64,000 nt of DNA from Candidatus Collierbacteria bacterium GW2011_GWB2_45_17. Lineage in GTDB: Bacteria > Patescibacteriota > Microgenomatia > UBA1400 > MFAQ01. Under the pieces are notes generated by a model, which did not search any database, was not told where the DNA came from, and was given only the letters and a program-made list of their open reading frames with translations. Location of the stretch: contig LCKO01000001.1 of NCBI GenBank assembly GCA_001001485.1, positions 9,381 through 73,380 of the forward strand, read 5' to 3'. Of this stretch, positions 7,631 through 37,317 are shown in pieces. Both the position numbers and the translations under genes were made by a program. How positions within the stretch are numbered: the first letter of the stretch is position 1; each line of letters begins with the position of its first letter.

Positions 7631-8056
7631 TTAGATATCGGAGTTTGATCTGTAGATTACCCCTGAAAAGTAGTTATCAAGAGCATCCTTTGACGCTACA
7701 AATAGATTGTCGGGTAATTTACTTTCTGGGAACCATGTAAGTTCCGAGTGTATCTCCGGCTCCATGTTCTTAGGGGTTCCCTCATAAGACTCGGCTAGGA
7801 ATACAAAAACAATGTAGTGATTTCCCATTTTCATATTTGGGGTTACAGATACCAACTCACTAATTCTTACATTTATTCCGAGCTCCTCTTTACATTCTCG
7901 TGTCACACACTGTTCAAATGTCTCACCAAATTCAATGTGACCACCGGGTAATTCCCATTCTCCAAATCCAAACTCTTTCTTCCTTTTAGATAATAGAATT
8001 TCCCCCTTATCGTTTTTGATAATTATTTGCGTTCCCAAACCAATGTGTTTTTCCAT
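7631..8056 (-). CDS. NUDIX hydrolase
   Basis: Nudix box GGHIEFGETFEQCVTRECKEELG. Confidence 0.65.
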   Translation of the reverse strand: MEKHIGLGTQIIIKNDKGEILLSKRKKEFGFGEWELPGGHIEFGETFEQCVTRECKEELGINVRISELVSVTPNMKMGNHYIVFVFLAESYEGTPKNMEPEIHSELTWFPESKLPDNLFVASKDALDNYFSGVIYRSNSDI

Positions 8057-27300: not shown

Positions 27301-28016
27301 TCGACGTTACCCAGGGTCTGCCTAGAGTTACCGAACTTTTTGAAGTCCGTATGCCCAAACTGGTTGCTCCTCTAGCCGAAGTCTCGGGCAAGGCCAAAAT
27401 TGTCGAAACCGACAACGGCAACCTAATTACTATTACCCCTACCGGCAAAAAAGAAGATCGCAAAGAGTATCTCATTCCTTTAGCCATGCATCTTAAGGTC
27501 GAAGATGGTGATCTTGTAGCCGTTGGAACTCAACTGGCCTCAGGAGGGGTGGACATTAGAGAACTTTTGAAGATCAAGGGTTTGAGAGCCGCTCAAAACT
27601 ACCTTATTGCCGAGATTCAATCAATTTATGAATCTCAAGGTATCAGCATTCACGACAAACACTTTGAAGTCATCACTAGAAAAATGTGCGACTATGTTCG
27701 AATTGACTCCGTTGGAGACTCAAGCCTCGTCGCCGGAGACGTTATCAGTCGAGGCAGTTACGAAATGGCCAATGAAGGCGTTATCGCTCAAGGAGGAGAG
27801 CCTGCCACCGCCACCAATCTTATTCTTGGTACCATTCGCGCCGCTCTACACACCGACAGTTGGCTTTCAGCCGCCTCTTTCCAAGACACCACCAGTGTCT
27901 TAACCGACGCCGCGGTTCAGGGAAAAGTTGACCATCTCGTGGGTATGAAGGAAAACGTTATTATTGGCCGCTTGGTTCCCACCAGCAAACTCCGTGCCAG
28001 GATCGAGAATATCTGA
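24306..28016 (+). CDS. rpoC: DNA-directed RNA polymerase beta' subunit
   Basis: NADFDGDQM catalytic motif, zinc-binding Cys clusters, 1236 aa. Confidence 0.9.
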
Positions 28017-28035
28017 TAAAATACACGAGCAAACA

Positions 28036-28458
28036 ATGCCTACCACGAATCAATTAATCAAGTCCGGCCGGGTGAGTAACGCCCGAAAAATAAAAACCAC
28101 CGCTCTTCGTAAGAGTTTTAACTCGGTCAAGCGTCGAATGGTTGTCACCCAAAGTCCTCAAAAGGCTGGGGTCTGTTTACAGGTCAAGACCATGACTCCC
28201 AAAAAACCAAACTCCGCATTACGGAAGATTGCCCGAGTGAGACTGTCAAACAAACAAGAAGTGACCGCTTACATCATGGGTGAAGGTCACAACTTAGCCG
28301 AGCACAGTATCGTCCTGATTCGCGGTGGTCGAGTTCGAGATCTTCCTGGTGTGAAGTTTCATATTATTAGAGGTAAGCTCGATACCGGTGGCATTGAAAA
28401 ACGCCGCACCTCCCGCAGTAAATACGGCACCAAACGCCCCTCAGTAGCAAAGAAATAA
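28036..28458 (+). CDS. rpsL: 30S ribosomal protein S12
   Basis: [12 protein letters not shown]...[10 protein letters not shown]. Confidence 0.9.
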
Positions 28459-28460
28459 AT

Positions 28461-28937
28461 ATGCGATCCAAAAAAACCCCACCTAAAAAAGTCCAATTTG
28501 ATCCGATTTACGGTAGTCCCTTAGTGGCCAAGTTAATCGCCTGTGTTATGGAAGACGGTCGAAAATCTGTCGCCGCCAAACAAGTTTACAAGGCTATTGA
28601 CATTGTCGCCGAGCAAACCAAGCAAGATGGAGTCGAGTATCTTCACACATCTCTGGACAACATCAAGCCGACTATCGAAGTCCGCTCCCGTCGTGTTGGA
28701 GGCGCTTCCTATCAAGTACCTACTCCTATCCGTCCGGAACGTCGTGACTCTCTGGCCATCCGCTGGCTCATCAATGCCGCCAAAGCTAGAGGCGCCAATC
28801 CTTACCGTACCCTTGCCGACAAACTCGCCGCCGAAATCGTGGAATCTCACGAAAATGCCGGCGCCGCCATCAAAAAGAAGCTCGACACTCACAAGCAAGC
28901 TGAGGCGAATAAGGCATTCGCTCACTTTAGATGGTAA
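28461..28937 (+). CDS. rpsG: 30S ribosomal protein S7
   Basis: S7 signature; 158 aa. Confidence 0.9.
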   Translation: MRSKKTPPKKVQFDPIYGSPLVAKLIACVMEDGRKSVAAKQVYKAIDIVAEQTKQDGVEYLHTSLDNIKPTIEVRSRRVGGASYQVPTPIRPERRDSLAIRWLINAAKARGANPYRTLADKLAAEIVESHENAGAAIKKKLDTHKQAEANKAFAHFRW

Positions 28938-29022
28938 TCCTATAGCATTATTACAGGACTACAATTTTTCATATTTGTGTTTCGGTATTGATTAGTTTTA
29001 ACTTTGGGTTTATTATGGATAT

Positions 29023-29871
29023 GTGATCACAAATTACTGCCCGATTTGTGGAGAATTGGTATTTAAAAAGCGAAAATTTTGTTCGGTTAAATGTAAGTCT
29101 GAAAGTCAAAATCAAAAGATTGAGTTAGAATGCACTGGTTGCGGTAACCATTTCAGGATATTGCCATATTTACAAAGGAAATCTAATTACTGCTCCGTCT
29201 CTTGCTATCACGACTCCACTAGGAAAAAAGAAATTAAAAATTGTCCGGTTTGCAGGAAGAATTTTTCAGTTATGGCGTGTTTAGTAAAGAAAGGTTTTGG
29301 AATTTATTGTTCTCAGAAATGTCGTTATAAAATTCACAGGAAGACTCAAGTTTGTTATCGATGCGGAAAGGAGTTTACTAGGGCATTATCATTATCTATT
29401 AAATATACAAAGTCATTTTGCAGTAAAAAGTGTTGCGACGACTCAACAAGGGAATATGTTTCGATATCGTGCCGCAATTGTCAGAAAATGATCTCAATTC
29501 CAAGAAGCACAATTAATCGAGGTAAGGGAGGATTCTGCTCCTGGTACTGTTATATCCACTATAAAGGCGAAACATCAATCGAAAAGATTGTGAGAATCCG
29601 ACTAAAAAAGGCCAAAATACCATTTGAACAAGAAGTTAAAATCGGTAAATACCATTCAGATTTTATGATCCAAAACACCAACATTCTGATTGAATGTGAT
29701 GGTGATTACTGGCACGGATTACCTTCAGCAATTGCCAAAGATAAGGTTCGAGATTTGATATTACGGACAAAAGGGTATGAAGTGCTTCGATTTACCGAGA
29801 CCGAGATAAAAAAGACAAAAGGAAACTGTGTTATTAATCAATTATCACAAAGGACAGACGTTAAGCAATGA
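29023..29871 (+). CDS. Zinc-ribbon-repeat protein with a C-terminal DUF559 (Vsr-like / restriction-endonuclease-fold) nuclease domain
   Basis: Five repeats of CxxC...x10-15...(F/Y)CSxxC, then IVRIRLKKAKIPFEQEV...SDFMIQNTNILIECDGDYWHG...DKVRDLILRTKGYEVLRFTETEI (DUF559 pattern). Confidence 0.55.
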   Translation: MITNYCPICGELVFKKRKFCSVKCKSESQNQKIELECTGCGNHFRILPYLQRKSNYCSVSCYHDSTRKKEIKNCPVCRKNFSVMACLVKKGFGIYCSQKCRYKIHRKTQVCYRCGKEFTRALSLSIKYTKSFCSKKCCDDSTREYVSISCRNCQKMISIPRSTINRGKGGFCSWYCYIHYKGETSIEKIVRIRLKKAKIPFEQEVKIGKYHSDFMIQNTNILIECDGDYWHGLPSAIAKDKVRDLILRTKGYEVLRFTETEIKKTKGNCVINQLSQRTDVKQ

Positions 29872-30811
29872 ATTCCCTCTCCAAAAAATACTGGGTCAAA
29901 CAAAAGCGGTATTCACTTTCCCGTTTAAATGGTTTCACCATTTTCTTTTGTTTCTGAGTCAGTTTTTCAAAATCTTTTTCGGTCAAGTGGGCCAGTATCA
30001 GGACATCACTTCGTCTCAGTTCTATACCCGTCTCTTTCTTTATTTGCTCTAGTATCTCTATCTGTACCGGCGCGTATTTTTGATAAACATAATCGGCGGT
30101 GAAAGTACTAAATACTTTATCGGCGATAATTAAGGACAAAATATTCTTAAACCACTTGGTGCCATAAAGAGTCTTTACCGGCTCCCGGGTGAAGGTAAAT
30201 CCAACTCGATAGTAAAACAATCCAAAAGGTTTGCTCATCGAGGTTAATACCGCCACGATATTTGGATGGGTATAGTCGAATTTATGTCTCTTGGTCAAAC
30301 CTAAATATGCCAAATCCACAATTACTTTATGTCCCAGATCCGCAATTTGATTAATTAAAGTGTCCACCAAAATATTTCCATCTCTACCGGATGGATTTGA
30401 GATAAACCAATACCCCGGTTTCAATTTCATTATCGTTTCGAAATCCTCCGGTATTTCTTGTACTTTTAGGCCAAGGCCTACGGCGCATTCCCGATAACCC
30501 TCATACTCTCCCTCCAGAGTATAAATTGGTGACTCCGGATGGTCTTTTTTGATTCTCGAAAGCAGGTGATATATTCCCTCACTCGAGCCACCGGTGGGGT
30601 AGCGGTATTCAAAGCTTTCCAAACCCTGAACGTCTTTTTTATAGAAATTAATCATCTTCTCAATGATTGGTTTCTCGTAGTCATCGAGTCCCGGCTTAAT
30701 CGATTTCAAAAATTCTCCATGTGGGAACTCTGCTGTAATCTCCGAAATCAGTTTCCTAATTTCCGGAAAGTAGTAAGAATAAACGGCTCGAATCGCTTTT
30801 AATTTCTTCAT
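29861..30811 (-). CDS. Class I/II PLP-dependent aminotransferase-fold enzyme (HisC/CobD-like, short)
   Basis: ISNPSGRDGNILV (NPxNPTG-like) and SMSKPFGLFYYRVGF (PLP-lysine motif). The probable start is the internal Met giving a 4-nt ATGA overlap with the upstream radical SAM gene; the ORF track extends to 30838. Confidence 0.55.
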   Translation of the reverse strand: MKKLKAIRAVYSYYFPEIRKLISEITAEFPHGEFLKSIKPGLDDYEKPIIEKMINFYKKDVQGLESFEYRYPTGGSSEGIYHLLSRIKKDHPESPIYTLEGEYEGYRECAVGLGLKVQEIPEDFETIMKLKPGYWFISNPSGRDGNILVDTLINQIADLGHKVIVDLAYLGLTKRHKFDYTHPNIVAVLTSMSKPFGLFYYRVGFTFTREPVKTLYGTKWFKNILSLIIADKVFSTFTADYVYQKYAPVQIEILEQIKKETGIELRRSDVLILAHLTEKDFEKLTQKQKKMVKPFKRESEYRFCLTQYFLEREFIA

Positions 30812-31683
30812 AGAATAATTGCCCCTTTGTATTGCCAATCAAATCGAATGTGTCCGTCGGGGAAGAAGATCATCTGTCGAATGTCATCCGTTCCGGGTTT
30901 TATCGTTAGAGCATCTGTCAAACAAACATTTTGTCCGGCGACATCATAGATTCTTGAGTTGTGTTCGTAAGAAAGAAGTAATCTCCCTTCCTTTTCCAGC
31001 CAGTCATTTATGTCCGCAATTTTCTTAGGAGTTAGCATCATCTTCACCGTATCTGTTTTATATTTCTCACTTTCCGAATTTTCCGGCGCAGCCACCGGTC
31101 TCAGAGACACTTGCTCCACTCCCCACTTGTTAGCCATCTCCACCATTTTTTTGGCCTCTTTGGGAGTGTCGATATGATCTTTGATCAGGACTACCGAAAA
31201 TCTTACGGAGTAGCCAATTTTATGCAGTTTGGCGATTATCTTTCCCAAATCCGGATATATTTTTTTACCGGGCACATAATTGGCTCTATTTTTCTCCGGA
31301 TCATAGTGCACCACCGATATCGAGATAATGGACAATCCAAGTTCAAACCACTCTTTTAAATATTTCTCATAACTTTTTTCTTGTTCGGAAAACAAAATAG
31401 CATTTGTCTGTAGTTCCAGAATAGGGAAGTCATATTTCTGAAGGTGTTTCAAATATTCGGTCAGCTGATCGGGGTATAAAGTCGGCTCACCCTTGCCGGT
31501 AAGCAGTACTGTCGTAATGTTATTTATCTGGGCAATCCTACAAGCTTTGTGAAAGTTGTGCCAGTTTATCAAGGTGGGTTTGGTGCCAATTCCCCTTATT
31601 CCCGTCATTTTCGAAACACAAAAGGGACAACTGGCATTACAAATGGCATTCCCCGACACTACCGTAAAAGTCTGTATCTTCAT
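30808..31683 (-). CDS. Radical SAM enzyme
   Basis: CNASCPFC (CxxxCxxC) near the N-terminus, TVLLTGKGEPTLYP glycine-rich SAM motif; 291 aa, no SPASM extension. Confidence 0.65.
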   Translation of the reverse strand: MKIQTFTVVSGNAICNASCPFCVSKMTGIRGIGTKPTLINWHNFHKACRIAQINNITTVLLTGKGEPTLYPDQLTEYLKHLQKYDFPILELQTNAILFSEQEKSYEKYLKEWFELGLSIISISVVHYDPEKNRANYVPGKKIYPDLGKIIAKLHKIGYSVRFSVVLIKDHIDTPKEAKKMVEMANKWGVEQVSLRPVAAPENSESEKYKTDTVKMMLTPKKIADINDWLEKEGRLLLSYEHNSRIYDVAGQNVCLTDALTIKPGTDDIRQMIFFPDGHIRFDWQYKGAIIL

Positions 31684-31801
31684 CTTAGTGTATATATTAC
31701 ACTAATAAAGAAGAATTGTCAAATATATCCAATTTAGCCACTATATACCTAGTGGAGTATAATCACCTTAGTACATTTCCAAACTCTTACGGAGGTAAAT
31801 C

Positions 31802-32233
31802 ATGTTTGAATGGTTATTTGGTTATAAAATTGATCCTCAAACCACGGTTGAGTGTTGGTTCCTTGAGTCCTATTCCATTACAGAAGAAAGTGCCAAGGGA
31901 AATCGTACTTTGGCCTACACCACCACTTGGAAAGAATACCAGTACAAGAGCCTTATCCATCCGAAGAACAAATTCGGTCCGAAAGATACCTTAGTGGTCA
32001 TAGGTCTTAACGTCAATCTAACCTCAGATTATAATTTTTTCACAAAGGAAGATTTCGAAAACCGAGCCAAGAATGTGCCAATCAGGAACGAAGAGGAGAG
32101 AGCTGCCTGGATCGATCGCATGCTTGAAACTCTTCCTTCAAAAAAAGAAAGTTTGGACAAATTAATTACGAAAATTGAGTCTTTGCGGGAAGGACTTTCC
32201 ACACTCGTCGATGAGCTACATTCACTTTCCTAG
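31802..32233 (+). CDS. Hypothetical protein with a canonical SD (GGAGG)
   Basis: 143 aa; SD 7 nt upstream of the ATG; its leader is duplicated upstream of the MttB gene. Confidence 0.4.
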   Translation: MFEWLFGYKIDPQTTVECWFLESYSITEESAKGNRTLAYTTTWKEYQYKSLIHPKNKFGPKDTLVVIGLNVNLTSDYNFFTKEDFENRAKNVPIRNEEERAAWIDRMLETLPSKKESLDKLITKIESLREGLSTLVDELHSLS

Positions 32234-32243
32234 AAGATAATTT

Positions 32244-32272
32244 AAAACCCCGATCAATTTTCGGGGTTTTTT
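32244..32272 (+). terminator. Intrinsic terminator AAAACCCCGATCAATTTTCGGGGTTTTTT
   Basis: GC stem then T-tract directly after the 32233 stop. Confidence 0.6.
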
Positions 32273-32338
32273 GTGCCTAATCATAAAGCGTATAATCACG
32301 CCAGTACATTTCCAATTTATTCTTCCAAAGGAGGCTCT

Positions 32339-33796
32339 ATGAAGCCAAAACTGACCTTGCTCGATGATGAATTGATTGCACGCGTCACTGACGAAGCTTT
32401 TCAATTATTGATGAGTCCGGGAATCAAAGTCCAAAATGTCGAAGCCCGTGAGCTACTTCGCTCCGCCGGAGCCGAAGTCGACGAGACCACTCTGGTTGCC
32501 CGGATTCCGAAATCTCTGGTCTTCACATCCCTCAAAACCGTGCCTCGTCATTTTCATCTTTATGATTATCAAGGCAACCAAAAAGTTCACTACGGCGGCG
32601 ACTCGGTTCACTTCGATCCAGGCTCCTCAGGCACCAATATTTTAGACACGGTGACTTTAGAGCATCGGCCAGCGCAAACTCAAGATCTTCTTCGGGTTAT
32701 CAAAGTGGTCGAAGGTCTTTCCGAGTACGACGCTCAGTCCACGGCTATTGTTTGTAGCGATGTGCCGAAAGAGATCCAAGATCTCTATCGCTTATATCTG
32801 GTTTTACTTTTCTCCGGGAAACCCATCGTCACCGGAGCCTTCTCCAATGAGAACGTCGAGCACATGATCGATATACTGGCCATCATTCCCGGTAGCCGCG
32901 AAAATCTGCGGCGTTTCCCCCGTGCCATATTCGATGTTTGCCCGTCGCCTCCACTCATTTGGTCCAATTTTGGCTCAGGCAATCTTATTGCTCTGGCGCG
33001 TGCCGGCGTTCCGGCCGAAATGGTTTCTATGCCCCTTGCTGGTGTGGCCGCCCCCGTGACCCTCATTGGCTCCGTCACTCAGCACGCGGCCGAGTGCCTC
33101 AGTGGGATCGTCATTCACCAATTAGCCGAAGCCGGCTCTCCCATTGTTTGGGGAGGTGCTCCGGCCATCTTCGACATGCGCAAAGGTGGCACTCCCATGG
33201 GTGCGATCGAGACCGCTATGATCGATAGCTCATATACCCAAGTCGGTAAATCCTTGGGACTTCCCACCCACGCCTATTTAGGCGGTTCCGATTCTAAGTT
33301 GGTCGACGGTCAAGCCGGCTTCGAAAGTGGCATGTCCATTCTTGTGGGCGCCCTCAGCGGTATCAATATGATCTCCGGTGCAGGTATGATCGACTCGCTT
33401 CTTTGTATGAGTCCGGAAAAACTGGTTATCGATGCCGAGTGCATTGCCATGGCTCGTCGAATGCTGAGGGGAATCGACACTCCGACCGAGACTCTAGCCT
33501 CAGGCTTTTATGAAGGTATAGACTTCAAAGGAAACTTTCTCAAGCAGAGAATTACCTCTGACCTATTCCGAAAGGAACAGCATCTCCCCAGCTCGGTAGT
33601 AGATCGGGATTCAGTTCGCGGCTGGAAAGCTTCAGGCAGTCTGGATACTTTTGCCCGAGCCAAGCTCGAGGTTGATAGACTTGTTGCCTCTTATCATCGT
33701 CCACAGCTAGACCCTTCTCAGGAAAAAGCCATTCGCGATCTTGTTGCCTCCTTCGCCCGCGAGGCCGGTATGCCCGCTCTCCCCCCTCTAGACTAA
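32339..33796 (+). CDS. MttB-superfamily (trimethylamine / glycine-betaine:corrinoid) methyltransferase, non-Pyl form
   Basis: Collinear similarity to MttB: AECLSGIVIHQL, GGAPAIFDMRKGGTPMG, LVIDAECIAMARRMLRGIDTPTETLA. The gene is visibly more GC-rich than its neighbours. SD AAAGGAGG upstream of the Met at 32339; the ORF-track ORF starts at 32273. Confidence 0.75.
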   Translation: MKPKLTLLDDELIARVTDEAFQLLMSPGIKVQNVEARELLRSAGAEVDETTLVARIPKSLVFTSLKTVPRHFHLYDYQGNQKVHYGGDSVHFDPGSSGTNILDTVTLEHRPAQTQDLLRVIKVVEGLSEYDAQSTAIVCSDVPKEIQDLYRLYLVLLFSGKPIVTGAFSNENVEHMIDILAIIPGSRENLRRFPRAIFDVCPSPPLIWSNFGSGNLIALARAGVPAEMVSMPLAGVAAPVTLIGSVTQHAAECLSGIVIHQLAEAGSPIVWGGAPAIFDMRKGGTPMGAIETAMIDSSYTQVGKSLGLPTHAYLGGSDSKLVDGQAGFESGMSILVGALSGINMISGAGMIDSLLCMSPEKLVIDAECIAMARRMLRGIDTPTETLASGFYEGIDFKGNFLKQRITSDLFRKEQHLPSSVVDRDSVRGWKASGSLDTFARAKLEVDRLVASYHRPQLDPSQEKAIRDLVASFAREAGMPALPPLD

Positions 33797-33839
33797 ATAC
33801 TTGCTAAACTACAAACAAATACCTTAAAAAAGGAGAAAA

Positions 33840-34328
33840 ATGTCTAAGTACTACGACATTGTAGTTATCAAAAGTTTCTCTATGGTTGCAGATGAATCGA
33901 CGGATGAAATTTTCAGAATGAACTTCGCTAAAGATGTCAGATCAAAACGCCTCGTTATAACTCATGCTCATCAATTAATAATTTTTAGCGTAGAGGCTAA
34001 AAGAATTGATCTCAATGCTGTCAAACGATTTGAAAATTTCCTCAGATCAAACGGTTTCACCAAGCTTTTTTCGGCAGTATACTCAGATAAAATGTCTGAT
34101 CTAGACGCCCGCTTCTTTACGATCAGATTGCATTCCAAGAATTTTTCCGATATGAAAGATCTGCTAATTTCCAAAATCGAAAAAGCCATCGGTGGAAAAC
34201 TCAAGGTTTACCACGACGAAATATACTATTTTCATTTGACCAAGTCCCAAATAAAGTCCAGACGTTTGGTTAGGCTAATAGACGATCTAGTCTTCTCTCC
34301 CGCAATCGAAATAGTCATCTGTATCTAA
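33840..34328 (+). CDS. Hypothetical protein (SD AGGAG upstream)
   Basis: 162 aa ORF with an SD. Confidence 0.4.
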   Translation: MSKYYDIVVIKSFSMVADESTDEIFRMNFAKDVRSKRLVITHAHQLIIFSVEAKRIDLNAVKRFENFLRSNGFTKLFSAVYSDKMSDLDARFFTIRLHSKNFSDMKDLLISKIEKAIGGKLKVYHDEIYYFHLTKSQIKSRRLVRLIDDLVFSPAIEIVICI

Positions 34329-34354
34329 CACTCCTCACAAGGGGGTGTTTTTTT
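34328..34354 (+). terminator. Intrinsic terminator ACACTCCTCACAAGGGGGTGTTTTTTT
   Basis: 7-bp stem with one G-U pair, plus T-tract. Confidence 0.45.
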
Positions 34355-34497
34355 GGCACAATAAAGTCTAGCTATTTGCCAGACTCCTTCTTGAAAAACT
34401 TCTTCACTCTCTGGTGGGCGCCTTTTGGGGCACGTTCGTAGGGGCGGGGTTTCCCCGTCCAACAACAACCCCAAAGAAAATTTGCTAACATAAATTC

Positions 34498-34827
34498 ATG
34501 TCCTCTGTCGATTTTTACCTCGACCATCGCAACAATAGTCCTGTCAGTGACTTTTTAGACAAAAACAAAGAGGTCAAAGTCAAAGCTTTAATTATCATCA
34601 AAAACATCATCGAGTTTGGCCTTTCCACCGCCATTCCCCACATCAAGAAACTCTCGGGTCTTCCTCTCTGGGAAATTCGTATCTTAGGCAAAAGCAACGC
34701 TCGCATTCTTTATGTCCACAAGGTTAAGAATCAAATAATTCTCCTCCACGCTTTCAAAAAGAAAACTAACAAAACTCCCACCAAAGAAACAAACATCGCT
34801 CTCAATCGCCTCAAAGATATCACTTGA
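34498..34827 (+). CDS. HigB-like toxin (Gp49-like/DUF891), second copy
   Basis: LWEIRILGKSNARILYVHKVKNQIILLHAFKKKTNKTPTKE. Confidence 0.65.
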   Translation: MSSVDFYLDHRNNSPVSDFLDKNKEVKVKALIIIKNIIEFGLSTAIPHIKKLSGLPLWEIRILGKSNARILYVHKVKNQIILLHAFKKKTNKTPTKETNIALNRLKDIT

Positions 34828-34860
34828 CATCTATATCCTATACGATATACAATTAGAACC

Positions 34861-35139
34861 ATGAACCTCCTCTCTTTTGACCAATATTTATCTGATAGCC
34901 TCAAAGATCCAGCATTCAAGAAACTCTGGGAAAAAGCCGACCCTGAATACCAGCTCTCCAGGCAAATAATCAAGGCCAGACTAGAGGCAAAAATGTCTCA
35001 AAAAGACCTCGCCAAAAAGGCTCACACCACTCAAGCCATCATTTCTCGTCTCGAAAACTCCAGCTTCAACCCCTCCCTCTCATTTCTCAAAAAAATCGCC
35101 ATTGCTCTCAACACCCCTCTCCATATCTCTCTTCCCTAA
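34861..35139 (+). CDS. HTH XRE-family antitoxin (HigA-like), second copy
   Basis: MSQKDLAKKAHTTQAIISRLE HTH; paralog of 5777-6067. Confidence 0.65.
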   Translation: MNLLSFDQYLSDSLKDPAFKKLWEKADPEYQLSRQIIKARLEAKMSQKDLAKKAHTTQAIISRLENSSFNPSLSFLKKIAIALNTPLHISLP

Positions 35140-35155
35140 CCTGTAAATCTCTCCC

Positions 35156-35180
35156 GCTCACCTCATTGGTGGGCTTTTTG
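35156..35180 (+). terminator. Terminator-like hairpin GCTCACCTCATTGGTGGGCTTTTT
   Basis: 7-bp stem plus T-tract between the antitoxin and fusA. Confidence 0.35.
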
Positions 35181-35196
35181 TGGTAAAATTAGCCTC

Positions 35197-37317
35197 GTGA
35201 ATATTGTCGGAAAAAAAGTTCCCCTTGATCGTGTTAGAAATACGGGTATTATCGCGCACATCGATGCCGGCAAGACCACCACTACCGAACGTATTCTTTT
35301 TTATACCGGTAAGTCATATAAAATTGGCGATATCGATGATGGTAATACCCAGATGGACTGGATGGACCAAGAAAAAGAGCGGGGTATAACGATCGTCTCC
35401 GCGGCCACCACCGCTTTTTGGACCCCTGTTTTGCCCCATGCCCGCTTCAAAGAAGAGCATCGCTTCAACATCATTGATACTCCGGGCCACGTCGATTTTA
35501 CGGCTGAGGTCGAGCGTTCTCTTCGTGTTCTCGATGGAGGCGTTATTGTTCTGGATGCCGGCTCCGGTGTCCAGTCTCAAACCGAAACCGTTTGGCGTCA
35601 AGCCGACAAATACCACGTTCCTCGCATTGCTTTTATCAACAAAATGGACGTTCTGGGAGCCGATTACATGGCTACCATCAAGGATGTGCATGAGAAACTC
35701 GGTGCCAAAACGGCCGTCATGGCTCTGCCTCTAGGTGTCGAAAACACTTTCCGCGGTATTGTTCTCCTTCTCGAGAGGGAAACTATTGTCTGGAAAGGCG
35801 ACGAAACCGGTGCTCTGTACGAAGTTACCGAAGGCTTCCCTGAGGAGATGAAAGACGAGTGTGAGCTCGAACGTGCCAAATTGATCGAATCCATTGTCGA
35901 ATTTGATGAAGTCCTCATGGGCGAGTATCTTGATGGTCAAGAACCGAGCCTGGACGCCCTCAAGACCGCTCTCCGGACAGCCACCTGTGCCAATCAGATC
36001 GTTCCTGTCTTTCCCGGTTCGTCCCTTCGCAACAAAGGCGTCCAGCCTCTTCTTGACGCCGTGGTTGATTTTTTACCTTCCCCACTAGACAAGCCCACCA
36101 TTACCGGTACCAATCCCGAAACCAACGAAGAGGAAACTCGTCTAGCCGACCCTGCCGAACCTTTCTCAGCCCTAGCTTTCAAGATTCAGGCCGATCCTCA
36201 TGTTGGTAAGCTGACTTATCTTAGAATATACTCCGGCAAAATTACCTCAGGTTCATTTGTTTATAATGCCTCCAAGCGCGAGCGCGAGAGACTTGGTCGT
36301 TTGATGCTCATGCACGCCAACACTCGTGAAGAAGTTAGCGAAGCCGGTGCCGGAGAAATTGTCGGCGTCGTCGGTCTCAAAGCCACCAAAACCGGCGACA
36401 CTCTTTGCGACGAATACAAGCCCTTGGTTCTGGAATCCATCAATTTTCCTGATCCGGTCATTTCTCTAGCCATTGAGCCCAAAACCAAAGCCGATCAAGA
36501 AAAGCTGGATGTGGCTCTGAGTCGTCTAGCCGAGGAAGATCCCACTTTCCGCATCAAAACCGATCACGAAACCGGCCAAACCGTTATCTCCGGCATGGGT
36601 GAACTTCATCTGGAAATATTGGTTGACCGTCTTCGCCGTGAGTTTAAGGTCGAGGCCTCTACCGGTGCTCCTCAAGTGGCTTACCGCGAAACTATCACCA
36701 AACCAGCTCGAGGAGAAGGTAAGTACATCCGCCAATCAGGTGGTCGAGGCCAATATGGTCACTGTATTCTCGTCATTACTCCCAAAACCAGAGGAGAGGG
36801 TTTTACTTTTACCAACAAGATCGTTGGCGGCACCATTCCCAAGGAATTTATCTCCCCAATCGAAAAAGGTGTTCGTGAAGCTCTCGACAACGGTGTTATT
36901 TCCGGTTTCCCTTTGGTTGATCTTGACGTCGCTGTTATAGACGGTTCCTTTCATGAGGTGGACTCTTCCGAAATGTCTTTCAAGATTGCCGGTTCCATGG
37001 CTCTTCAGGACGCCGTCAAAGCCGCCGGGCCGGTCATCCTCGAACCGATTATGAAGGTAGAAGTTACCACTCCCGAAGGTAACATGGGTGACATTATCGG
37101 GGACCTTTCCTCTCGCCGGGCCCAAATCGCCGGTTCCGCCCAACGGGGCAACGCTCGAGTTATCACCGCCACCGTGCCTCTTTCGGAGCTTTCCGCCTAC
37201 GCCACCGCCATTCGTTCTTTAACCGCCGGCCGAGCCAACTACTACATGGAACCCAGTCATTATCAGGAGCTTCCAAACAGTTTGGCGGCCAAGTTATTGA
37301 AAAACCCGACAAACTAG
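35197..37317 (+). CDS. fusA: Elongation factor G
   Basis: GTG start; [10 protein letters not shown]-domain motifs; 706 aa. Confidence 0.9.

Follow-up and report, generated by a model that had tools for sequence, protein, structure and literature searches.

Enzyme pairs in which a dehydratase acts first and an aminotransferase second are familiar from blasticidin S formation (BlsE/BlsH) and from HisB/HisC. The radical SAM and PLP enzymes described here would resemble them in their proposed order of reaction alone, with no membership implied, and the BlsH/DegT-type families differ from our HisC-like PLP protein. SbzP, a PLP enzyme of aminotransferase fold that joins SAM and beta-NAD in an annulation (PMC13518217), sets a precedent for the use of NAD and SAM as substrates by such proteins; the likeness is one of description only, and SbzP is a 523-aa protein of a secondary-metabolite cluster, whereas the context of our PLP gene is primary NAD salvage.

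The regulatory counterpart is the NrtR regulon, whose operator has been described as a 21-bp palindrome with the core GT-N7-AC, overlapping the promoter (Rodionov et al. 2008, PMC2330246). The same study records that NrtR also controls two-gene operons, nrtX-nrtY, to which no function was assigned. The map of NAD synthesis and salvage is regarded as essentially complete, and a 2026 paper gives the aspartate, tryptophan and engineered C3N routes as the only de novo routes, in addition to the known salvage routes. In the literature searched, neither radical SAM enzymes nor class-I PLP enzymes are described among NrtR targets, and we found no report that links a radical SAM/PLP combination with NrtR or NAD salvage. 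The gene pair examined below probably forms a conserved metabolic operon for two enzymes that belongs to the NAD (NrtR) regulon, and is not a defence system.

The gene pair and its spread

The window, i.e., the whole 64-kb stretch of Collierbacteria DNA under analysis, contains a radical SAM gene (30808..31683, minus strand) for a 291-aa protein of an uncharacterised family with the cluster motif CNASCPFC, and a fold-type-I PLP gene (29861..30811, minus strand) for a 316-aa protein with a short HisC/CobD-like class I/II aminotransferase fold. The stop codon of the former lies over the start codon of the latter in a 4-nt ATGA overlap (30808..30811, minus strand), an arrangement of translational coupling that can be read at 30811-30808 from 'tctATGAag'. 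Translation of the PLP gene starts at the ATG at 30811 and not at the upstream TTG at 30838, because the homologues begin at the same Met; with P0121 of Candidatus Collierbacteria GW2011_GWB1_45 the 316-aa product shares 100% identity. The pair is flanked by rpsL-rpsG (to 28937) and fusA (from 35197), and is on the opposite strand to both; the same placement between rpsG and fusA is kept in Collierbacteria-type relatives. Coordinates, Pfam scores and conserved spacing all bear out the first-pass annotation in that both ORFs and their overlap within the str operon are real. This str-operon gap is insertion-prone in the Collierbacteria strain, where the pair sits beside a nuclease and a toxin-antitoxin pair.

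The divergent neighbours (31802..33796, plus strand) are a small ORF without assignment (31802-32233) and a non-pyrrolysine MttB-family methyltransferase gene (32273-33796). They are kept beside the pair in Collierbacteria only, and possibly are co-regulated with it via a shared intergenic operator; their standing as members of the module is uncertain. An Rfam search of positions 28000-36000 of the window returned sub-threshold matches only, among them PYLIS, which reflects mttB coding similarity. Upstream of the pair's relatives in seven loci that have no NAD context, the same search found no riboswitch or RNA element at gathering score.

Both the radical SAM and the PLP family are large and uncharacterised, with some 400 clusters at 50% identity; their hosts are found among CPR bacteria, DPANN archaea, Obscuribacterales, Planctomycetota, Chloroflexota and Acidobacteriota. 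Members of the two families are adjacent in either order across phyla, and distant homologues in both gene orders again display tight spacing (-10 to +5 nt), which argues that the coupling is not due to chance. A natural radical SAM-PLP fusion of 666 aa (P0325) is 38% identical to the PLP protein of the window; the other fusion seen, P0390, has a weak cupin-like N-extension, and among the family proteins no fusion to NAD enzymes was found. Adjacency in both orders across phyla, translational coupling and the natural fusion together support the idea, already put forward in the first-pass annotation, that the two genes form one functional two-enzyme unit. The PLP gene accompanies the radical SAM gene in about half of the loci with NAD context, and an adjacent PLP gene is absent from 32 of 59 such loci, so that either the PLP step is not needed or its gene lies elsewhere. 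Whether a PLP gene is adjacent depends on the clade within the radical SAM tree, and adjacency was gained or lost several times; comparison of PLP presence with particular NAD genes gave no strong signal (best p about 0.03, uncorrected).

NrtR-type operator and NAD-gene neighbourhoods

Upstream of the radical SAM gene is a predicted 21-bp palindromic operator, TTAGTGTA-ATATA-TACACTAA (31685..31705, no strand assigned), with the NrtR-type core GT-N7-AC. It overlaps a predicted sigma-70-type promoter (31694..31722, minus strand), which consists of TTGACA at 31722-31717, a 17-nt spacer and TAATAT at 31699-31694. The box TTAGTGTA-N5-TACACTAA covers the -10 element and ends 2 nt before the radical SAM start codon, and the transcript is predicted to be near-leaderless, with the ATG at 31683. 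The window contains one exact copy of the operator, the one at 31685-31705. In all Collierbacteria-type relatives the operator is found upstream of the radical SAM gene; TTGACA is kept at the same spacing in relatives, and in other phyla the identical box precedes pncB, a nadE/nadK divergon, nadA, nrtR, and radical SAM or PLP-radical SAM operons. Exact sites are strongly enriched (25 compared to 0.05 expected), as are sites with at most one mismatch (50 compared to 0.5 expected). Of 120 operator sites in an independent scan of metagenomes, about 27 were near a recognisable NAD gene, most of them directly adjacent and a few two or three genes off.

Membership in the NrtR regulon is thus indicated by an operator in the promoter region, by the occurrence of this operator at bona fide NAD genes and nrtR, and by the co-localisation of orthologues. 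As in the described regulon (PMC2330246), relatives of the pair are found together with nrtR (NUDIX plus wHTH), pncA/B, nadE, nadD/M, nadR-pnuC and nadABC. Unlike that regulon, the window has no nrtR gene; its only NUDIX gene is of the MutT type (7631-8056). No NAD gene or nrtR occurs anywhere in the 64-kb window, nor within 10 kb in any of the Collierbacteria-type relatives, and the operator is therefore the sole link to NAD in Collierbacteria.

We surveyed the context of the radical SAM gene in 86 non-redundant loci, where its neighbours in about 59 cases include NAD genes (pncA, pncB, nadE, nadD/M, nadR, pnuC, nadK, nadA, nrtR). At least one core NAD gene was present in 55-59 loci; in 50 of the 86 an NAD gene was no more than two genes away from the radical SAM gene, and in 44 at least two NAD families were within five genes. 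Pfam-annotated gene calls place the radical SAM gene between NAD genes in L001-L007 and L011. More generally, in CPR, DPANN and several free-living phyla it lies within operons of the pncB-pncA-nadE-nadD-nudix-nadK-nrtR or pnuC-nadR type, or beside nrtR, and in L073 and L079 an nrtR-PLP-radical SAM cluster stands alone. Neighbours checked with NCBIfam and Pfam models include NadA (above cut-off) as well as NadD, NadE, NadR, NaPRTase-like, NAD-kinase-like, ADP-ribosylglycohydrolase and NDT-like/NUDIX proteins. About a quarter of the loci, mostly from large-genome bacteria, are missing the NAD context. Operons with a complete Preiss-Handler set have no obvious missing step for the pair.

The first-pass annotation had held that a radical SAM-PLP pair is not a standard housekeeping module in reduced genomes, a view that finds no support in the NAD biosynthesis and salvage context in CPR, DPANN and other phyla or in the NrtR-type operator. 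It had named a cofactor pathway conserved across CPR genomes as the contrary case; the NAD context comes close to exactly that, but no characterised enzyme pair was matched.

Loci with nadA bear on a different role, in which the pair would supply NAD synthesis with its imine or pyridine precursor, independently of oxygen and flavin. An alpha-amino acid, e.g., aspartate from oxaloacetate, would be formed or handled by the PLP enzyme, and the radical SAM enzyme would abstract the Calpha hydrogen to give an imine (iminoaspartate or a decarboxylated analogue) for NadA, by analogy with ThiH, which replaces ThiO in the supply of dehydroglycine. The radical SAM gene is indeed found inside nadA-nadC-[radical SAM]-nadB operons (L037, L042), in the arrangements nadB/C-nadA-PLP-radical SAM (L052) and sufB-nadA-PLP-radical SAM (L051), and, in L038, with nadA running divergently from radical SAM-PLP. 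A bona fide NadA accompanied by pncA/pncB, with nadB and nadC both absent within 10 kb, is encoded at ten loci. The PLP enzyme retains the C-terminal Arg with which class I aminotransferases hold a carboxylate or phosphate group, and an optional PLP gene would fit a generic transamination that other enzymes could supply. However, no more than 17 of the 86 loci have nadA nearby; the gene is missing from most DPANN and CPR clusters, which consist purely of salvage genes; and NadB is already encoded beside the radical SAM gene in L003, L037, L052, L066, L070 and L095. Moreover, the nearest radical SAM folds act on nucleotides rather than on amino acids, and no auxiliary cluster is present as an electron acceptor. 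On balance, we regard this role as unlikely.

A few of the neighbourhoods bring sulfur to mind. The PLP protein could be a C-S lyase or a cysteine-desulfurase-like sulfur donor, and the radical SAM enzyme could insert sulfur into a pyridine nucleotide or need dedicated cluster repair. In Obscuribacterales, which are without the PLP gene, a Se/S-carrier domain is fused to a NadR-like kinase in the same operon; sufB adjoins nadA-PLP-radical SAM in L051; and sufS belongs to actinobacterial NrtR regulons. The Se/S-carrier link and the sufB link, however, each occur in just one lineage or locus; an auxiliary cluster motif is missing from the radical SAM family, which has only two further invariant cysteines; and in sequence the PLP profile comes nearest to HisC and CobD. 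Together this makes a sulfur-related function quite improbable.

The two proteins and their closest relatives

The radical SAM ORF matches Pfam Radical_SAM (PF04055) with 44.4 bits (cut-off 29.5). Its cluster motif is C15-N-A-S-C19-P-F-C22; the three cysteines and the SAM motif GKGEP are invariant in the family, so that the CxxxCxxC motif, the GGE-like SAM motif and the Pfam score above the gathering threshold all place it in the radical SAM superfamily. Beyond the cluster motif, only C48 and C254 are invariant cysteines in the family. The protein consists of a MoaA/viperin-type core and a conserved C-terminal β-rich lid, RQxIFFPDGHxRFDWQYKGA; it ends at residue 291, and its C-terminal region has a single conserved Cys and no SPASM/twitch Cys cluster. 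These features support its description as a small MoaA/viperin-type enzyme without SPASM and without an auxiliary Cys cluster, and on this point the first-pass annotation was right. In both proteins of the pair the active site is intact in sequence, and no characterised family in the Pfam or NCBIfam models claims either of them.

The best sequence-profile match of the radical SAM protein is MoaA, the GTP 3',8-cyclase (NCBIfam 39.5 bits; PDB profile E 5e-5), and the core folds are the same (TM about 0.71). In contrast to MoaA, which has a C-terminal Cys triad for a second [4Fe-4S] cluster, our protein is without such a triad, and no Moco genes are found near its gene; the score of 39.5 is far under the cut-off of 284 for TIGR02666, and identity with MoaA is rejected. 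QueE and NrdG, brought up in the first-pass annotation, likewise score far below their family cut-offs. For QueE there is a core match only (QueE-like PHROG, 29.5 bits, E 9.5e-7), and for the NrdG activase the NrdG2 model gives 23.9 compared to a cut-off of 131. By fold, the protein is nearest to viperin and MoaA, which act on nucleotides, and then to BlsE.

The first-pass annotation had suggested a viperin-like, nucleotide-modifying defence or small-molecule module that would include the adjacent DUF559 nuclease. The radical SAM fold is in fact as close to viperin as to anything else, there is a weak PADLOC pVip match of 30.5 bits, and the pair's place beside the nuclease and the toxin-antitoxin pair, in an insertion-prone gap, would suit that idea. 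Yet the NCBIfam viperin model (NF038283) gives 26.6 bits, compared to a cut-off of 180, over residues 14-123 only, and the PADLOC pVip matches (30.5 and 19.8 bits) do not reach beyond the N-terminal part with the cluster motif. The C-terminal lid, highly conserved in our family, differs from that of viperin and pVip. Homologues of the DUF559 nuclease and of the Gp49/HTH toxin-antitoxin pair are absent from all 97 related loci, 11 of which are of the Collierbacteria type, while the radical SAM-PLP pair itself is conserved; nuclease and toxin-antitoxin pair are therefore rejected as parts of the module. Unlike viperin and pVip, the pair has a PLP partner and an NAD-operon context instead of a defence context: across phyla its neighbours are metabolic NAD genes, and it has its operator in common with NAD operons. 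No close phage or plasmid homologues of the pair were found. A defence function is thus very improbable.

The PLP ORF matches Pfam Aminotran_1_2 (PF00155) with 29.6 bits (cut-off 19.7). This score above the gathering threshold, the Schiff-base Lys in an SxSK motif, the Asp facing the pyridine N, the Arg facing the phosphate and the fold identify a class I/II aminotransferase of fold type I. Invariant residues are K194 (the Schiff-base Lys, in SMSK), D166, Y169, N139, R202, R297 and R302. The closest sequence relatives are HisC and CobD (PDB profile 2.5e-10 and 4.6e-6, respectively), both of which act on phosphorylated substrates and have the catalytic Lys, Asp, Asn and Arg in common with our protein. 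The latter, however, is shorter by some 40 aa and carries an invariant N-terminal arm of its own, VYxYYFPEIR, and its gene is outside any his or cob context. Neither identity is upheld by the scores (35.7 compared to 276.55 for TIGR01141, HisC; 30.2 compared to 290.55 for TIGR01140, CobD).

Proposed reaction in NAD metabolism

We tentatively propose, as a possibility somewhat short of probable, that the radical SAM enzyme and its PLP partner carry out a new reaction of NAD metabolism, one that is oxygen-independent and radical-based, makes, rescues or converts a pyridine-nucleotide precursor, is common to CPR, DPANN and several free-living phyla, and is switched on by NrtR when NAD is consumed. 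Consumption of NAD would yield ADP-ribose, which would release NrtR, and the operon would then be expressed alongside the genes of NAD synthesis and salvage, its product helping to refill the pool of pyridine nucleotides. In the likeliest mechanism, the radical SAM enzyme would bind SAM at its CNASCPFC cluster and generate the 5'-deoxyadenosyl radical, which may take a hydrogen from an anionic, nucleotide-like metabolite of the NAD pathway (of the NMN/NaMN, NAD/NaAD or ADP-ribose class). An oxygen-independent dehydration or oxidation to a carbonyl might follow, by analogy with viperin, BlsE and diol-dehydratase-type radical SAM enzymes. The HisC/CobD-like partner would then transaminate or decarboxylate the neighbouring keto- or amino-(phospho) group, as suggested by analogy with HisB/HisC and BlsE/BlsH.

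If this is true, the radical SAM protein would be the first of its superfamily with a role in the biosynthesis or salvage of NAD, and the pair would add an unmapped reaction to that network. The family is strongly conserved in two groups of ultra-small episymbionts as well as in large-genome bacteria, and would bear on how CPR and DPANN maintain their cofactor pools despite minimal metabolism. The operator half-sites are identical in archaea and bacteria, which suggests, at the level of sequence, that the whole regulon may have moved between the CPR and DPANN episymbiont groups.

Two coupled genes of two uncharacterized families

The radical SAM protein (291 aa; 30808-31683, minus strand; motif C15-NAS-C19-PF-C22) and the PLP protein (316 aa; 29861-30811, minus strand) are flanked by rpoC-rpsL-rpsG on one side and fusA-tuf on the other, and lie on the opposite strand. 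The start of the PLP gene is set at ATG 30811, instead of TTG 30838 of the ORF listing, because the protein thus encoded (316 aa) shows 100% identity to a homolog from Candidatus Collierbacteria GW2011_GWB1_45 (P0121), and other homologs begin at the same Met. With this start, in the sequence tctATGAag, the two genes share a 4-nt stop/start overlap, and reading of the ORFs and the sequence thus confirms the ATGA junction of the first-pass annotation. The two-step unit proposed there is also well supported: the two genes are adjacent, in either order, in 46 of 86 non-redundant loci, usually overlapping or separated by 1-5 nt, and one 666-aa homolog (P0325) is a radical SAM-PLP fusion, with a C-terminal half that shares 38% identity with the PLP protein of the window.

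Pfam detects Radical_SAM in the first protein (44.4 bits, cut-off 29.5) and Aminotran_1_2 in the second (29.6 bits, cut-off 19.7). No curated family covers either of them. The top NCBIfam matches of the radical SAM protein are MoaA (39.5 bits vs cut-off 284), lipid synthase Tes, tungsten-cofactor maturase, viperin (26.6 vs 180) and NrdG (23.9 vs 131), and only generic radical SAM families are found in PHROGs; the PLP protein resembles both HisC (35.7 vs 277) and CobD (30.2 vs 291), yet scores far under both cut-offs. The clustered database contains 797 radical SAM and 549 PLP full-length homologs at 45-60% identity, the radical SAM profile matches 401 clusters at 50% identity (E<1e-30), and 241 relatives turn up when each GTDB species is represented by one genome. 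Their hosts are CPR bacteria (Collier-, Woese-, Sung-, Lloyd- and Saccharibacteria, Paceibacter), DPANN archaea (Woese-, Pace-, Nano- and Aenigmarchaeota), and also Obscuribacterales (6.7-7.0 Mb genome records), Isosphaeraceae and other Planctomycetota, Anaerolineae/Chloroflexota and Acidobacteriota, so that the family is not special to reduced genomes.

Both enzymes look catalytically competent, judging by the alignments. Invariant in the radical SAM family are C15/C19/C22, the GKGEP SAM motif and further cysteines C48 and C254; five Arg are invariant or nearly so, and conservation of the C-terminal segment RQxIFFPDGHxRFDWQYKGA is extreme. Invariant in the PLP family are the Schiff-base Lys K194 (SMSK), D166, Y169, N139, R202, the C-terminal R297 and R302, as well as the N-terminal arm VYxYYFPEIR, which is a distinctive feature.

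Neighbors in the str operon and the defense reading

The first-pass annotation had suggested a viperin-like, nucleotide-modifying defense or small-molecule module, in which the pair works with an adjacent nuclease. The radical SAM fold is indeed near viperin, along with MoaA and BlsE, but the profile scores speak against identity with viperin or NrdG, the pVip matches in PADLOC are weak and confined to the cluster-binding N-terminus, and a search of 50,697 phage records (where identity reaches 21% at best) and 72,556 plasmids yields no close homolog. The nuclease, a DUF559/MTES_1575 (Vsr-like) endonuclease preceded by many CxxC zinc-ribbon repeats (29023-29871, plus strand), and a Gp49/HigB-like toxin with its HTH_3 antitoxin just upstream of fusA (34498-35139, plus strand) have no homologs in any of 97 related loci, 11 of which are Collierbacteria-type loci that retain the pair between rpsG and fusA. 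By this comparison both are strain-specific insertions, which deprives the defense reading of its support, and we consider that reading unlikely. The nuclease looks like a homing or selfish insertion, and its 3' end is convergent with that of the PLP gene, with an 11-bp overlap; the rpsG-fusA gap of the str operon looks like a hotspot for insertions within this genus.

Divergent from the pair are a small ORF and a non-pyrrolysine MttB-family methyltransferase gene (31802-33796, plus strand), an arrangement kept in six Collierbacteria-type loci. The MttB-family ORF is uninterrupted (507 aa), the PDB entries nearest to its product are TMA and glycine-betaine methyltransferases, and there is no corrinoid-protein gene nearby; demethylation of a pyridinium betaine (trigonelline, for instance) would be a purely speculative role. 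The intergenic region common to the two divergent units contains an NrtR-type box.

NrtR-type operator and NAD gene context

This box, the 21-bp palindrome TTAGTGTAATATATACACTAA at 31685-31705, is the sole exact site in the 64-kb window. It overlaps the -10 element of a predicted promoter (-35 TTGACA, 31722-31717; -10 TAATAT, 31699-31694). The -10 element ends 10 nt before the radical SAM ATG; there is no Shine-Dalgarno sequence, and the mRNA is probably leaderless or near-leaderless. In all Collierbacteria-type relatives TTGACA is followed, after about 17 nt, by a -10 box that lies inside the palindrome; the latter reads TAGTGTA-N5-TACACTA and stops 2-5 nt short of the start codon.

Sites of NrtR, a regulator of NAD metabolism, are 21-bp palindromes with a GT-N7-AC core, from which NrtR is released by ADP-ribose (Rodionov et al., PMC2330246); the window box matches length and core exactly. 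The exact box is present in 30 of the 97 loci, and counts far exceed expectation (25 exact sites vs 0.05; 50 vs 0.5 with at most one mismatch). NAD operons led by pncB have it immediately upstream, nadE/nadK divergons contain it, and it precedes nadA and nrtR itself. In other phyla it also immediately precedes radical SAM or PLP-radical SAM operons, among them stand-alone nrtR-PLP-radical SAM loci (L073, L079) and the operons with three radical SAM genes (L033, L096). Of 120 sites from a separate, independent search of metagenome contigs with the 21-mer, about 27 are beside or near recognizable nrtR, nadE, nadA, pncB, pnuC/nadR or nadK genes; the reference set behind this count would overlook more distant forms of them. 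There is no nrtR in the window, where the sole NUDIX protein is MutT-like. The fit to the NrtR description, the sharing of the box with NAD operons and the metagenome sites lead us to place the window operon, with reasonable though not high confidence, in the NrtR regulon.

The 86 non-redundant loci were annotated by ORF calling and BLAST against NAD reference genes from Pfam-annotated loci. Their context is the main result, and it too speaks against defense: at least one core NAD gene is present in 55-59 of them, the radical SAM gene has one no more than two genes away in 50, and at least two NAD families are within five genes in 44. Gene orders around distant homologs in Pfam-annotated loci include pncB-pncA-(4 small ORFs)-radical SAM-PLP-nadE-NDT/NUDIX-pnuC-nadR-nucleoside hydrolase-NUDIX-nadA-nadC/nadB in a Nanoarchaeia locus; pncB-pncA-nadE-NUDIX-nadD-radical SAM, then a divergent cinA, then nrtR, in a second archaeal locus; nrtR-pnuC-nadR-radical SAM-PLP-nadK-pncB-pncA in a Patescibacteria genome; and, in a further locus, pncA-pncB-nadK with a divergent radical SAM-PLP pair and convergent nadE downstream. 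Spot checks with NCBIfam/Pfam uphold the annotation, with NadA above cut-off, and identify NadD, NadE, NadR, NaPRTase-like, NAD-kinase-like, ADP-ribosylglycohydrolase and NDT-like/NUDIX proteins. NAD context is missing from the Collierbacteria-type clade, where the pair is in the str operon beside the MttB gene, and from several large-genome bacteria.

An Obscuribacterales operon comprises NadR-like kinase, adenylyltransferase, NAD-kinase-like and radical SAM genes without a PLP gene; in three such loci (L067, L075, L077) the kinase opens the operon and the radical SAM gene closes it, and in L067, the one scanned with Pfam, the kinase carries a fused Se/S-carrier domain (PF11823) and is followed by a 645-aa protein with cytidylyltransferase-like domains. 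The three-radical-SAM operon of anaerobes (L033, 8448-12551; L096, 6447-10569, followed by a DUF3048 gene) encodes a HemN-like protein, a member of the pair's family, the PLP enzyme and a small MoaA-like protein, has two NrtR-type boxes ahead, and may represent a longer form of the pathway.

The box also adjoins a recurrent 599-aa ORF, unmatched by the NAD reference set, in mostly human-gut contigs (L103, L115, L143, L149, L156, L165, L200, L214); this ORF may belong to the regulon as a further member, or encode a remote NadE or NadB. Half-sites TAGTGTA/TACACTA are identical, and NAD operons similar, in DPANN (L001, L003, L029, L041, L043) and CPR loci (L012-L028, L044, L073), which suggests horizontal transfer, between these episymbiont groups, of the regulator, its operator and the operon with its radical SAM gene.

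Possible chemistry and its rivals

Three findings stand: the promoter is overlapped by an NrtR-type operator, the active sites of both coupled enzymes are intact, and the genes are members of NAD operons across domains. Breakdown of NAD would raise expression of the operon, and its product should therefore help to restore pyridine nucleotides. The proximity of the radical SAM fold to viperin, MoaA and BlsE, and the many invariant Arg/Lys of that enzyme, point to a substrate that is anionic and nucleotide-like, and the HisC/CobD-like partner would act on a keto or amino group beside a phosphate or carboxylate. On the logic of HisB/HisC and BlsE/BlsH, a nucleotide of the NAD pathway (NMN/NaMN, NAD/NaAD or ADP-ribose class) would be dehydrated or oxidized to a carbonyl by radical chemistry that needs no oxygen, with PLP-dependent transamination or decarboxylation to follow; this specific chemistry is a tentative proposal, and rather unlikely to be correct as drawn. 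SbzP, an aminotransferase-fold PLP enzyme able to use SAM and NAD (PMC13518217), is a precedent at the level of substrates.

The radical SAM and PLP superfamilies and the NrtR regulon are already known; the family, the pairing and the link to NAD metabolism appear to be undescribed. Targeted full-text search found no literature linking a radical SAM enzyme or this PLP family to NrtR or NAD salvage, and a 2026 summary of NAD routes has none by radical SAM chemistry; an uncharacterized NrtR-regulated two-gene operon, nrtX-nrtY, is on record in Streptomyces, Proteus and Hahella (PMC2330246).

A role in sulfur or Fe-S metabolism would agree with C-S-lyase-like fold neighbors, the Se/S-carrier fusion in Obscuribacterales and a sufB neighbor; the radical SAM family, however, has no auxiliary cluster motif. 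Another rival is an amino-acid route, in which the pair supplies the imine to NadA without NadB. The radical SAM gene does occur inside nadA-nadC-X-nadB operons and in nadA-PLP-radical SAM clusters, and ten loci with an "orphan" nadA have pncB and neither nadB nor nadC within 10 kb, but most clusters have no nadA, and several already have nadB. In these ten loci (L038, L049, L051, L057-L059, L081, L086, L087, L094) nadA, which encodes quinolinate synthase, shares a cluster with pncA/pncB and the radical SAM gene; NadA is above the NCBIfam cut-off where scored; beside nadA there is a DAO-family flavoprotein gene in L087, and an unannotated 463-aa ORF at the same position in L094.
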